DNA of 64,000 nt. Source: Bacteroidia bacterium (lineage in GTDB: Bacteria; Bacteroidota; Bacteroidia; Flavobacteriales; Flavobacteriaceae). The notes under the pieces were generated by a model. The model worked only from the letters and a program-made list of their open reading frames with translations, made no database searches and was not told the DNA's origin. The stretch lies in contig JAUICK010000007.1 of NCBI GenBank assembly GCA_030427865.1, positions 76,831-140,830 of the forward strand, given 5' to 3'. Positions 27,059-30,920 of this stretch are shown in pieces. Position 1 is the stretch's first letter. Every line of letters begins with the position of its first letter. A program made the position numbers and the translations under genes.

Positions 27059-27070
27059 ATTAATCTATTT

Positions 27071-27086
27071 ATTGCAATATTACGAT
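27071..27086. promoter_or_regulatory. Candidate ArsR operator overlapping a near-consensus -7 box
   Basis: Imperfect palindrome ATTGCAATATTACGAT (12/16) 13 nt upstream of the arsR ATG. Confidence 0.55.
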
Positions 27087-27114
27087 TAATAATTGAAATA
27101 AAAAATATTTTTTA

Positions 27115-28011
27115 TTATTTGCTTAAATCAAATAAATATCCAACAGATAAACTAAAAAATTTAGTAGTCGGCAAATTACTTTCATTTGCAACTGCATGAG
27201 GCAAATTTAGTGAGTAACCTAATTCGAAATCCCAAGATTTAGTTGTAAATGATAGTGGAATTAAAATTTGCGTATTTAAAAAACTAAAAACTTCTTCTGT
27301 TATTGTTCTTAAAAATGGAGATGTTCTAAAGCGCTGAAGATAGGTATATTCTTGTTTTGCTGCAATAAAACTCAATGTTGGTCTTAACCTTAAGGCAAAA
27401 GTAGAATTTCTTATTAAATTAATTCTTGCAAAAGAGTTAGATATAAATTGATATGATGTATCTGAACCAAATAAATAAGACACAGAAAATGTACTTCCCA
27501 AAGTTCTTTTTTTATTTCTAACACCCAAACTAAGGTCTATAGAATTCGTAAAATCATCAAAATCATCAGAATAAAAATACTTTGTGTACCCCAAATTATA
27601 AATAAATTTATTGTGCCCAAAAGTATTTAAATACCCCAAAGAAATACTCGTAAAATCCCATTGTGGAGAAAAATTTTGATAATAAACCCCAGAAATACTT
27701 GCATTAAAACCTGATGAATGGTAATACGAAATTTGAGGAATACTATTAAATTGATTTGTGCCAGAATCTCTTCCAGAAAAGTAGGTGTTACTATTATATG
27801 CTACTGAAGTATAGATAAAATTATACGAATTCCCTCCTTCTATTAATTCGTCTAAAAATTGTTTATCGTCAAAAAATAAATCATCTAAAATATTATCTAT
27901 ATCTTCATCACTACGTTCTTGTGCATACGAACAAAAAGAGGTTGCCATTGTTAACAATAGCAACCCAAAAACTTGTAATTTTGTTTTTATTTTTTGATAA
28001 AATTTAATCAT
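27115..28011 (-). CDS. Hypothetical outer-membrane beta-barrel-like protein
   Basis: Signal peptide (SYA-Q), alternating aromatic beta-strand pattern, YLFDL near the C-terminus. Confidence 0.6.
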   Translation of the reverse strand: MIKFYQKIKTKLQVFGLLLLTMATSFCSYAQERSDEDIDNILDDLFFDDKQFLDELIEGGNSYNFIYTSVAYNSNTYFSGRDSGTNQFNSIPQISYYHSSGFNASISGVYYQNFSPQWDFTSISLGYLNTFGHNKFIYNLGYTKYFYSDDFDDFTNSIDLSLGVRNKKRTLGSTFSVSYLFGSDTSYQFISNSFARINLIRNSTFALRLRPTLSFIAAKQEYTYLQRFRTSPFLRTITEEVFSFLNTQILIPLSFTTKSWDFELGYSLNLPHAVANESNLPTTKFFSLSVGYLFDLSK

Positions 28012-28020
28012 CTATCCATA

Positions 28021-28494
28021 TTAGTTCCTTTTTGGTCTTGCCTTTTTTCCGTTTGATTTTTTTTCTCTGGGACCATTTTTTAGCTCACCTCTATCTTTAG
28101 CTTTTCTAATTTTATCTATCCTTTCTTTAAGCATTTTTCTTTGCTCTCTGGTTAAGGTTTTTCTAAAACTTTCTCTGGTTTTTCTTAGACGTACTTGCTG
28201 ATTTTTTACCAATTCTTTTTGGGTTTTGGTAAACGTTTTCATTAAGCGTTGCCTAACTTCGTTTCTCGAAATTGTTTTATCTTTTAAAATAGCCAATTGC
28301 TCTTTAGTTAGTGTTGCTTTAAAGGCCTCTCTATTGGCTTTCATAACTTCACGTTCTTTTTGCAATAAGGTCTTTTGTTCTTTCGTAAGTTCTTTGGTTA
28401 TTAACTTGTAATTAGAATCTTGAGCAAAGGTAGAATTGCCAAACATCAATAAACCCAAAAAGCTAATTTGTAATATGATGATTTTCATTTTCAT
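28021..28494 (-). CDS. Periplasmic helical protein, Spy/CpxP-like
   Basis: Signal peptide plus four LTxEQ/LTxxQ motifs; very basic. Confidence 0.6.
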   Translation of the reverse strand: MKMKIIILQISFLGLLMFGNSTFAQDSNYKLITKELTKEQKTLLQKEREVMKANREAFKATLTKEQLAILKDKTISRNEVRQRLMKTFTKTQKELVKNQQVRLRKTRESFRKTLTREQRKMLKERIDKIRKAKDRGELKNGPREKKSNGKKARPKRN

Positions 28495-28540
28495 TTTCTT
28501 GTTATTTTGCTCAATAGCATCTAAAAGTACTAAATTTTAT

Positions 28541-29416
28541 TTAGTTTTTACAACTTTCTTTGGCAGCTTTCATTTCATCTGCATCATTAATTGTAGCAGT
28601 TGATCCGTCTTTATAAGTAATATCTACTGGGTAATTTAAAGCTCCTTTTTCATCTACGTCTGGGTTTGCTTTATGCCATCTTCTTAATTGTCTAAAATCT
28701 GCTCTTTGATTAACTGTAATAAGGGTTGCATCTGGCATTGTAAAACTAACTGGCAAGACTAATCTAAAACATTTTCTTTTGTCTTTTCCTCTTTTACAAG
28801 AATCTTTAATTGTTTTTAATTCGTCTCTATCTAATAAAGTTTGTACAGTATCATCTTCTAAAGTAACATCTACAGGGAAAACTAATTCTGGACGTTCAGT
28901 AACATCTATATTTGCAGTATACCAATCTCTTATTAATGTCCAATCGTCTTTGCTGTTTAATGTAATTGATGAGTTATCTGGCATAATAAAATCGATAGGA
29001 AATACAAATTGAAAACACTTATGCCTTCTCTTTTTTCTTTTTTCATTTGTATTTTCTAATTGTCTTCCTTGAGTCGTAAAAAAAATAGCACTACTAATTT
29101 CTGCTCTAGACACATTATCTGTAATAGCTGTTATTTTATAACCTAAACCTACAGCTAATTCTGCAGTTTCTATAAAACTATCTGCTAAATCTCCATTAAA
29201 TGCAGTTACTATAGCAGATGGTAGACTGCTTTCTTCTACAACTATTGTAGATGCAGCTTCTATTTGCGCTATTAAAGCATCATCACTTGCAGCAGTTTCT
29301 AGTCCATCTGAATCTGAACACGAAGTAAATAATAATGCTGATAAAATAAATGCGGTAATTGAGAAAAATAAAATACTCGATTTTAAAATACTTTCTCTTG
29401 AAATTGTAGTTCTCAT
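28541..29416 (-). CDS. Hypothetical lipoprotein with two tandem Cys-bounded domains
   Basis: Lipobox FTSC; two ~75-aa repeats KCF..V.P..F.MPD...PVD.T..D.....SC. Confidence 0.7.
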   Translation of the reverse strand: MRTTISRESILKSSILFFSITAFILSALLFTSCSDSDGLETAASDDALIAQIEAASTIVVEESSLPSAIVTAFNGDLADSFIETAELAVGLGYKITAITDNVSRAEISSAIFFTTQGRQLENTNEKRKKRRHKCFQFVFPIDFIMPDNSSITLNSKDDWTLIRDWYTANIDVTERPELVFPVDVTLEDDTVQTLLDRDELKTIKDSCKRGKDKRKCFRLVLPVSFTMPDATLITVNQRADFRQLRRWHKANPDVDEKGALNYPVDITYKDGSTATINDADEMKAAKESCKN

Positions 29417-29452
29417 AATTGGTAAATTTTAATTATTAATTGTTTCTATTTC

Positions 29453-29480
29453 TTAGAACCACGTTTATTTAAATAGTTTG
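29453..29480 (-). promoter_or_regulatory. ECF sigma-type promoter of the lipoprotein gene
   Basis: CAAACT-N16-TTCTAA, same geometry as the other two copies. Confidence 0.65.
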
Positions 29481-29486
29481 AAAAAA

Positions 29487-30146
29487 TTATAAAATTATTG
29501 TTTCTATGAATTTATCTTCTGATAATGAATCATCTAAAATCATAGAATCTAAAATTAAATCGTCCATTTTTTGTTCAGAAAGTTCTGCTTTAATAACAAT
29601 TTCATTGATTAAAGTATTATTTGCATAAGCTTCTAACTCATCATCTTCTAAAAACAAAGAGTTAATTAGCACATCATCATTAAAAGACAACAATTCTACG
29701 TTGTTCTCCTCTACTCTATTATTATCAGCATTTTGTAACCAAATGGTTAAACTTAATATAAAAACTACAGATGCAGCTGCTATATATCTAAATTGAGGTT
29801 GCAACCAAAACACTTTTTGTTTTTTTATGGCTACAGGAGTTTCTGCAATCACCTCTTCTTTTTGTATTTTATCTAAAATAGAAAGTTTAGATTTAGCAAA
29901 ATAACCCTCTGGAATATCAGTTCCTAAATACCCTTTATGATGTTGAGTAACATCTGAAATCTTTTCTTTTAAAAAGGTGTTATCAGTACTTTCTTCTTTT
30001 ATTTTTTTTAGGATAGACAACTTAGATTTCGCAAAATAATCATCAGGAAGATCTGTTCCTAAATACTCTTTGTGGTGTTTAGAAACATCTGTAAAACCTT
30101 CTTTTAAAAAGTTTTTGTTGTTTTTATTTGTAGATTTTTCCATCAT
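29487..30146 (-). CDS. Putative membrane-anchored anti-sigma factor with duplicated N-terminal motif
   Basis: Follows the ECF sigma; LGTD.P..YF motif twice; single TM helix YIAAASVVFILSLTIWL. Confidence 0.7.
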   Translation of the reverse strand: MMEKSTNKNNKNFLKEGFTDVSKHHKEYLGTDLPDDYFAKSKLSILKKIKEESTDNTFLKEKISDVTQHHKGYLGTDIPEGYFAKSKLSILDKIQKEEVIAETPVAIKKQKVFWLQPQFRYIAAASVVFILSLTIWLQNADNNRVEENNVELLSFNDDVLINSLFLEDDELEAYANNTLINEIVIKAELSEQKMDDLILDSMILDDSLSEDKFIETIIL

Positions 30147-30154
30147 TATATTAG

Positions 30155-30182
30155 TTAGACCCTAACTTTTTAAAATAGTTTG
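30155..30182 (-). promoter_or_regulatory. ECF sigma-type promoter of the anti-sigma gene
   Basis: CAAACT-N16-GTCTAA within the 39-nt gap between sigma and anti-sigma. Confidence 0.7.
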
Positions 30183-30185
30183 GAT

Positions 30186-30725
30186 TTATATAAATATTTT
30201 TTCTTCAATAATTTTTACTGCTGTATAATAGGTAGATTTTAATGTGCTCTCAGAAACATTCAAAATTTCTGATATCTGCCTAAAACTCAAATCATCAAAG
30301 TATTTCATTTGAAAAACTCTTTTTTGTTTTTCTTTAAAACCATCAATTATTGTATGGAGTTTTCTTTGAATTTCATTGCCATCAAAATATGCATCTTCAA
30401 ATAAAACTTCTAAATGAGAACTTGAAATATCATCAATATTATCAAAAGATTTTTTATTATTTTTCTCTAAAAGACGCATAGATTCATTGTAGGCAATTCT
30501 ATACATCCAAGTATGTAAAGAGCTTTTTCCTTCAAATTTACCAATGCTTTTATACACTCTAATAAATGTATTTTGCAAAACATCATCAGCGTTTTCATGC
30601 GTAGTAACTAATTTTCTAATATGCCAATACAAACGTTCTTGATACGCATCAAGCAACTCACTAAAAGCTTTGTCTTTTAATGTAGTATCTTTTAACTTTC
30701 TTACAAGTTCTTGGTCTTTACTCAA
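30186..30725 (-). CDS. ECF RNA polymerase sigma factor
   Basis: DVLQNTFIRV, TWMYRIAYNE region 2 and region 4 HTH LSFRQISEIL; TTG start. Confidence 0.93.
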   Translation of the reverse strand: MSKDQELVRKLKDTTLKDKAFSELLDAYQERLYWHIRKLVTTHENADDVLQNTFIRVYKSIGKFEGKSSLHTWMYRIAYNESMRLLEKNNKKSFDNIDDISSSHLEVLFEDAYFDGNEIQRKLHTIIDGFKEKQKRVFQMKYFDDLSFRQISEILNVSESTLKSTYYTAVKIIEEKIFI

Positions 30726-30751
30726 ATAATGGGTTTGTTAGTTGTTACTCT

Positions 30752-30779
30752 TTTGACCTTGATACATCAAAATAGTTTG
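30752..30779 (-). promoter_or_regulatory. ECF sigma autoregulatory promoter
   Basis: CAAACT-N16-GTCAAA, 26 nt upstream of the TTG start. Confidence 0.65.
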
Positions 30780-30920
30780 ATGAATTTATAAAATATTTTT
30801 TGATTTACACGAATTCTATAAATTTTACAAATAGTTTTATCGATATAAATTTGATTTATAATTCAACTATTTTTAAAATCATTTGTATTTTTATGATGTA
30901 TTAAAAGCACTATATTTCTT

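Follow-up and report, generated by a model that had tools for sequence, protein, structure and literature searches.

In a genome of the Flavobacteriaceae deposited as Bacteroidia bacterium (GCA_030427865.1; 3.34 Mb, 30% G+C), five co-oriented genes lie on the - strand of a 64,000-nucleotide (nt) stretch of contig JAUICK010000007.1 (positions 76,831 to 140,830). The whole stretch, hereafter "the window", corresponds to G000:C17:76831-140830 in our numbering, where G000 is this genome. The genes encode a sigma factor of the extracytoplasmic function (ECF) type (30725..30186), a putative anti-sigma factor (30146..29487), a lipoprotein (29416..28541), a Spy/CpxP-like periplasmic protein (28494..28021) and an outer-membrane (OM) barrel (28011..27115). 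An earlier, sequence-only reading had taken this cluster for a self-contained ECF regulon with a promoter motif readable three times. The question raised by the locus is whether the repeated motif is indeed a promoter recognised by the adjacent sigma factor, and where the regulon of this sigma factor ends. The names carried by homologues place the genome in the genus Polaribacter. Our comparative analysis makes it highly probable that we are dealing with a Polaribacter sigma/anti-sigma module of the ECF class (group IV) that regulates its own expression and is predicted to read three sites within the cluster, P1, P2 and P3, plus at least two unlinked transcription units.

The repeated motif as a probable ECF promoter

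Scanning of the window revealed three exact copies of CAAACTATTT-N11-G(G/T)TC(T/A)AA, all on the - strand and exactly where the sequence-only reading had seen its three strong copies, before the sigma, anti-sigma and lipoprotein genes. P1, the predicted autoregulatory promoter of the sigma gene, is located at 30752..30779 (CAAACTATTT-N11-GGTCAAA); P2, predicted to serve the anti-sigma gene only, at 30155..30182 (CAAACTATTT-N11-GGTCTAA); and P3, predicted to drive the lipoprotein-Spy-like-barrel operon, at 29453..29480 (CAAACTATTT-N11-GTTCTAA). With up to two mismatches allowed, the window contained three matches versus 0.31 expected, a number reached in one of 100 shuffles. The genome-wide scan, which the same reading had proposed, returned these three exact copies and none outside the cluster: all of them fall within one 1.33-kb stretch, each in the intergenic gap upstream of a gene.

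Such crowding would also be expected if the copies were functionless relics, left by a local duplication or by a mobile repeat of small size. This genome does contain intergenic repeats, such as a 75-nt element at C1:12080-12160 that recurs across the genus. We nevertheless regard this explanation as barely credible, the least probable of those considered. The motif was found again at the same three places in 30 Polaribacter loci, and in the 20 extended loci that preserve the gene order yaaA / sigma-anti-sigma-lipoprotein-Spy-like-barrel / arsR it was retained at P1 in 18, at P2 in at least 16 and at P3 in all 20. Conservation is limited to the two boxes: among orthologous loci, box positions carry 1-2.3 bits of information each, as against 0.2-0.6 bits for spacer positions, and the spacers differ from site to site. 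Moreover, the three sites persist at the same places although the anti-sigma proteins share only 37-67% identity between genomes, and the motif recurs at unlinked orthologous genes, as described below. The -10 box reads GTTCTAA at every P3 in the genus and GGTC(A/T)AA at P1 and P2.

The protein encoded next to P1 (30186..30725, -; 179 amino acids (aa), TTG start) consists of sigma regions 2 and 4 only (Sigma70_r2, PF04542; Sigma70_r4_2, PF08281) and scored 102.8 bits with TIGR02937 (cutoff 42.9), which places it in the ECF superfamily. It belongs to none of the NCBIfam equivalogs (RpoE, SigW, SigX and others), as its best scores of 66-91 bits stand against cutoffs of 190-260. Its nearest solved structures are SigW, AlgU and RpoE, sigma factors that use AAC/GTC-type promoters. 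The sequence-only reading had assigned the motif to the ECF pattern of -35 AAC and -10 GTC, and this holds comparatively: the spacing is fixed, conservation extends over the genus, and the count per genome follows the sigma locus. For the form AAACTATTT-N12-KTCWAA, the 39 genomes that have the locus averaged 2.95 occurrences each, against 0.95 for the reversed control; in 107 genomes without it, the average was 0.48 (control 0.62). P1 has the AAC-type -35 and GTC-type -10 boxes expected of an autoregulatory ECF promoter. Most likely, the holoenzyme would recognise AAACTATTT as the -35 and G(G/T)TC(T/A)AA as the -10 element, with 17 nt between AAAC and GTC.

A conserved bipartite 28-mer could in principle also bind a dimeric regulator, and would then be an operator and no promoter. 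In favour of this, another conserved block, which contains a 21-nt direct repeat, is found upstream of P1. We consider an operator very unlikely. The half-sites of the 28-mer are unlike each other, being neither palindromic nor directly repeated; the element is strictly oriented with the downstream gene at a promoter-like distance from the start codon; and it matches the AAC/GTC pattern of the nearest relatives of the sigma factor. Across the genus, the GTC is separated from the start codon by 25-29 nt at P1, 10-14 nt at P2 and 36-44 nt at P3; in this genome, there are 11 nt from the P2 GTC to the first anti-sigma ATG and, at P3, about 40 nt to the lipoprotein ATG.

The block just mentioned (30816..30846, -; genus consensus ATTGATAAAACTATTTATAAAATTGATA) emerged from the alignment of 18 yaaA-sigma intergenic regions, in which P1 is one of only three conserved blocks. 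It comprises a 21-nt direct repeat of ATTGATA as well as an embedded AAAACTATTT. The block may represent a promoter of the housekeeping type, its TAAAATTG deviating from TAnnTTTG at one position, or else a site for a regulator that would also serve yaaA, a peroxide-stress gene. Another conserved element, AATAGAAAC (29442..29450, -), closely follows the -10 box of P3; it is common to P1 in most relatives and probably sits at the 5' end of the P3 transcript. More generally, an A(A/T)TAGAAAC or GAAGAAAC element was observed 4-8 nt past the -10 box at P1 and P3 in most loci and at the sulfatase sites described below; it lies at the predicted 5' end of several target transcripts.

Extent of the regulon and the core sigma factor

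To delimit the regulon, we built a matrix from orthologous sites; below a score of about 20, the genome scan could not be separated from its reversed-sequence null. The weak fourth copy reported earlier before the Spy-like gene, AAAACT-N16-TTTTAG at 28521-28548 (-), is present in the sequence, but its matrix score of -2.9 (22-34 for real sites) is at chance level, it is not conserved in relatives, and its AAAC overlaps the lipoprotein stop codon; it was accordingly dropped as an ECF promoter. In 15 of 21 genomes, the lipoprotein-Spy spacer carries instead a perfect housekeeping -7 box of Bacteroidota, TAnnTTTG, from which the start codon is about 40-46 nt away; the box is absent from the present genome and its closest relatives. 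Since neither of the two candidates is left here, the Spy-like and barrel genes would in this genome most simply be expressed by read-through from P3. No terminator-like site was found between the genes.

The regulon does not appear to end with the cluster, and on this point, too, the sequence-only reading has to be corrected. Two unlinked sites were among the top five of the matrix scan. The first (C6:72354-72381, score 24.6) is situated 22 nt before a gene for a YHYH-domain lipoprotein, which is followed by genes for a MORN-repeat lipoprotein and a SCO1/SenC protein; the second (C63:41802-41829, score 22.3) lies 16 nt before the gene for a 435-aa Cys-type sulfatase lipoprotein. Both are conserved in sigma-bearing relatives. 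Of 10 genomes with the sigma locus, 7 had a site upstream of the YHYH orthologue, compared with 1 of 15 without it, this one being 76% complete. Strong sites preceded the sulfatase orthologues in 10 of 11 sigma-bearing genomes, all ten reading AAACTA; in genomes without the sigma factor, 9 of 11 read AAAC(C/T)T, the form of the core sigma factor introduced below. The same sigma factor thus probably drives the YHYH-MORN-SCO1/SenC operon and the sulfatase lipoprotein as well. Across the genus, the motif was also seen ahead of genes for YHYH paralogues, for other sulfatases and for further exported proteins.

The arrangement of these target genes differs between genomes. In at least 17 Polaribacter genomes without the sigma factor, sulfatase and YHYH genes are adjacent in one operon (e.g. 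G294:C7:108717-110794), preceded, where the upstream region was read, by AAAC(C/T)TTT...GGTCT(A/T)A. In sigma-bearing genomes, the two are unlinked and each has its own AAACTA-type site.

Two other matches were set aside. The matrix match at C26:33138 falls within coding sequence and was attributed to chance. At C1:12080-12201 (-), this genome shows an orphan AAACTATTT...GAGTCAAA site followed, after about 90 nt, by an intrinsic terminator, which might have indicated an ECF-dependent small RNA. This candidate was weakened by the finding that the 75-nt downstream piece is a repeat, present in genomes with and without the sigma factor; moreover, the promoter at this place is of the core-sigma form in most genomes, where it is followed by a gene for a Spy-like paralogue. 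Beyond the orphan site, the Spy-like paralogue gene (C1:11977..11525) has an AAACC-type site of its own. A Pfam search with the paralogous Spy-like proteins gave no match.

The core form mentioned above belongs to the nearest paralogue of the sigma factor in this genome (C6:38113-38658), which shares about 48% identity with it (phmmer E 2.7e-47). This paralogue is the first member of a module at C6:38113-39688 (+) composed of a sigma factor of 182 aa, an anti-sigma factor of 180 aa with two PxxYF motifs (C6:38695-39237) and a Spy-like protein of 149 aa. Orthologues of the core sigma factor were identified in 89 of 100 Flavobacteriaceae genera; in the same survey, a second match of the window type was seen only in this genome and in one other genus, and the anti-sigma gene of the window was present in 43 of 150 sampled Polaribacter genomes. 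By sequence comparison, the window sigma factor is a lineage-specific paralogue of the Flavobacteriaceae core ECF sigma factor. AAAC-N16-18-GTC was found upstream of the core sigma gene in 28 of 30 genera; in 27 of 30, it also occurs immediately behind the stop codon of the sigma gene, ahead of the anti-sigma ATG. The consensus of this core anti-sigma promoter is ATTAAACCTTT-N11-(A/G)GTC(A/T)AA, with the GTC mostly 9-11 nt from the ATG.

Could the sites of the window, then, be ECF promoters that are read mainly by the core sigma factor, or by both factors equally? The promoters of the core factor, AAAC(C/T)TTT-N11/12-(A/G)GTC(A/T)AA, are near-identical in form and have the same 17-nt spacing, the sulfatase-YHYH operon carries the core form in genomes lacking the window sigma factor, and the site at C1:12174 switches between the two forms among genomes. 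On the other side, the AAACTATTT form is essentially confined to sigma-bearing genomes and strictly kept at P1-P3, while the core sigma factor's own promoters retain AAACC in the same genome, which together argues for two separate specificities. We therefore judge it improbable, if the most serious of the alternatives, that the core factor is the main or an equal reader, and hold to the adjacent sigma factor as the one that would recognise P1-P3.

Several observations weigh against the overall interpretation and should be read together with it. Only one or two -35 positions discriminate between the two sigma factors, and not without exceptions, so cross-recognition is possible: AAACTA precedes the sulfatase gene in two genomes without the sigma factor, and AAACTT or AAACCT stands at some of the YHYH sites of sigma-bearing genomes (G172, G232). 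The surveyed genomes are kin and the cluster itself adds to the counts, so that the co-occurrence statistics overstate the case. P1 has been lost in two genomes that keep P2 and P3, and positive autoregulation is hence not universal. Finally, searches of Pfam and NCBIfam recognised no anti-sigma domain in the adjacent 219-aa protein, the class I (ASDI / zinc-binding) domain included.

Predicted anti-sigma factor, proposed feedback and target proteins

The predicted anti-sigma factor (29487..30146, -; 219 aa) is a single-pass membrane protein co-conserved with the sigma factor. Its only transmembrane helix spans residues 119-137, and the periplasmic tail of 82 aa is acidic, with a charge of -18. 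The cytoplasmic part comprises two copies of a Cys-free module of about 40 aa, HHKxYLGTxxPxxYFxKSKxSIL, whose PxxYF..SIL motif is common with the core anti-sigma factor. This genome and four relatives have the module as a tandem pair (window 29853-30110), whereas 12 others have one copy; the consensus of the single module in most orthologues is HHKxYLGTxIPxxYFxKSKxSIL.

P2 begins 3 nt beyond the stop codon of the sigma gene, and 8 nt separate its end from the anti-sigma ATG. By its placement and conservation, a promoter of the sigma factor's own type would transcribe the anti-sigma gene without the sigma gene, as in SigH/RshA-type systems, its activity being predicted. The separate anti-sigma promoter proposed earlier thus finds comparative backing, and the same arrangement is ancient in the paralogous core module: the two-promoter layout in 28 and 27 of 30 genera indicates that a dedicated anti-sigma promoter is old and general in this ECF clade and was inherited by the window module. 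In Escherichia coli sigmaE promoters, the GTC occupies about -12 to -10. Applied to the 9-14 nt between GTC and ATG, this placement leaves a 5' leader of about 0-4 nt, and the anti-sigma mRNA is therefore probably leaderless or nearly so. In Flavobacterium psychrophilum, a minority of mRNAs (5.5%) have no leader (PMC9723704).

The circuit might operate as follows. At rest, the anti-sigma factor would hold the sigma factor at the membrane through its PxxYF module or modules, until an envelope signal frees it, probably by proteolysis of the anti-sigma factor, as in other single-pass anti-sigma factors. P1 would then drive the sigma gene and probably read through into the anti-sigma gene, providing positive feedback, whilst P2, in the 40-nt gap that follows the sigma gene, would drive the anti-sigma gene alone and provide sigma-dependent negative feedback with fast shut-off. 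From P3, the lipoprotein, the basic LTxxQ protein and the barrel would be expressed, and the YHYH/SCO1 and sulfatase units would be induced alongside. The Spy-like protein (charge +27) may in turn bind the anti-sigma tail (-18) as a feedback co-regulator in the manner of RseB or CpxP; a similar charge pairing exists in the core module (-17.6 versus +16.8).

The earlier description of the targets as a lipoprotein, a Spy/CpxP-like protein and an OM barrel is reasonable. None of the three had a Pfam family above threshold, and sequence-level PDB searches gave no meaningful match. The lipoprotein (28541..29416, -; 291 aa, lipobox LFTSC) has an acidic N-terminal half followed by two Cys-bracketed alpha/beta repeats of about 85 aa, each preceded by a basic stretch; its model has a mean predicted local distance difference test score (pLDDT) of 83, with weak fold matches only, to Bacteroides periplasmic proteins of the DUF2874 type. 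The repeat domain is widespread in Flavobacteriaceae proteins of about 600 aa.

The Spy-like protein (28021..28494, -; 157 aa, signal peptide) possesses four or five LTxxQ-type motifs, invariant in 21 orthologues, and the charge of +27 refers to its mature form. Against Pfam LTXXQ (PF07813), it remained below threshold (E 0.029, 15.5 bits versus 24.3) over profile positions 15-98 of 100, and a PDB profile search found no match.

The barrel protein (27115..28011, -; 298 aa, signal peptide) begins with an acidic N-terminal segment, followed by 14 predicted strands over residues 64-295. The model, of low confidence (pLDDT 60.7), agrees with an OM beta-barrel, for which a signal peptide and a closed antiparallel barrel of at least eight strands are expected. 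Foldseek returned 75 matches with E <= 0.001; all those listed are OM barrels, the top ones being NanC (best, 1.3e-6), KdgM, Tsx, FapF, OmpG and autotransporter barrels. Its sequence homologues are all unnamed Polaribacter proteins without a Pfam family. As the targets are exported, a role in envelope stress is plausible.

In three other genera (L133 G129, L136 G335, L137 G107), an unrelated ECF sigma factor (24% identity) is encoded together with homologues of the lipoprotein, of the membrane/periplasmic part of the anti-sigma factor and of the Spy-like protein, and the lipoprotein gene is preceded by a different promoter-like sequence, the conserved GTAGGGG(T/A)TTGATTTTT..CGGTATAT. This weakly suggests (tblastn E about 1e-5) that the sensor/target set and the sigma factor have recombined.

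As to the surroundings, the cluster is flanked by yaaA, divergent upstream, and by arsR and a DUF6428 gene downstream. The spacer between the barrel gene and arsR (window 27060-27100) contains, just upstream of the ArsR/SmtB gene, a strongly conserved TTAATCGTAATATTGCAATAAA with the palindrome ATTGCAAT, probably the ArsR operator/promoter. Where the barrel gene encodes its signal peptide, a hairpin of 12 bp with a T-run behind it was noticed (27939-27966, -), which may be a coincidence of coding sequence. Rfam and sigma-70 scans of the cluster region gave no result above chance.

Known systems and meaning for the Flavobacteriaceae

In kind, the system is well known: it is an RpoE-like ECF module, an ordinary switch in an unusually legible form. 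Like the RpoE-RseA-RseB, AlgU and SigW modules, it combines a two-domain sigma factor, a gene for a putative single-pass membrane anti-sigma factor directly downstream and a periplasmic partner gene after that with a predicted AAC-type -35 / GTC(A/T)AA-type -10 autoregulatory promoter and exported envelope targets. Unlike the RpoE type, its anti-sigma factor has one or two short PxxYF..SIL modules in place of a recognisable class I domain, its partner is a basic LTxxQ protein and not of the RseB type, and a second sigma-type promoter is assigned to the anti-sigma gene alone; the sigma factor itself is far under the equivalog cutoffs, also for SigW and SigX.

The Spy-like protein resembles CpxP, Spy and ZraP as a small helical periplasmic protein with repeated LTxxQ motifs and predicted induction by an envelope-stress regulator; CpxP is known to feed back on its sensor CpxA. 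It differs from them in having no His or Cys metal ligands, a much higher charge and a sub-threshold Pfam match.

The closest parallel to P2 is found in Corynebacterium glutamicum SigH-RshA, where a sigma-dependent promoter of the anti-sigma gene alone was shown experimentally and proposed to allow quick shut-down of the response (PMC3489674). There, however, sigH has housekeeping promoters and RshA is a cytoplasmic redox sensor, whereas here the sigma gene has an ECF-type promoter and the anti-sigma factor is membrane-bound, with a transcript predicted to be leaderless.

The core module has much in common with that of the window, namely the related sigma factor, a PxxYF anti-sigma factor with an acidic periplasmic tail, a basic Spy-like protein and two identically spaced promoters. 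It differs by its -35 element (AAAC(C/T)TTT, as opposed to AAACTATTT), by the lack of lipoprotein and barrel genes, and by its distribution over most genera of the family, compared with less than a third of the sampled Polaribacter genomes and one other genus for the window module. A scenario that would tie these observations together, which we put forward tentatively and with somewhat less than even confidence, is that the window module is a recent duplicate of the core ECF switch that turned orthogonal. A change at essentially one position of the -35 element would have turned AAAC(C/T)T into AAACTA; the sulfatase-YHYH-SCO1 operon, belonging to the ancestral regulon, would have been split up and placed under the new sigma factor; this factor would have been combined with a lipoprotein/Spy-like/periplasmic-sensor set that in other genera is governed by an unrelated ECF sigma factor; and both anti-sigma factors would be made from a sigma-dependent leaderless mRNA, a conserved brake.

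New in the literature searched are the readable code of this clade, the family-wide and probably leaderless anti-sigma promoter, the short PxxYF anti-sigma factor, the uncharacterised targets and the apparent -35 divergence between paralogues with a rewired operon. It should be mentioned that the sites may already be included in regulon predictions made on a large scale, for instance PMC7776599.

Bacteroidota encode many ECF sigma factors, but a promoter or regulon is known for very few of them; in the present case, the code of the promoters is legible in the genome itself and can be compared between genomes. This offers a testable regulon together with a natural pair of close sigma factors whose -35 codes differ slightly, which can help to understand and to engineer ECF switches that are orthogonal. 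The predicted sigma-dependent and probably leaderless anti-sigma transcript would be a conserved feature of the circuit across most Flavobacteriaceae genera. The targets represent uncharacterised envelope families in abundant marine degraders of algal polysaccharides, and the link to the sulfatase and the YHYH/SCO1 operon hints at a physiological role that can be tested.

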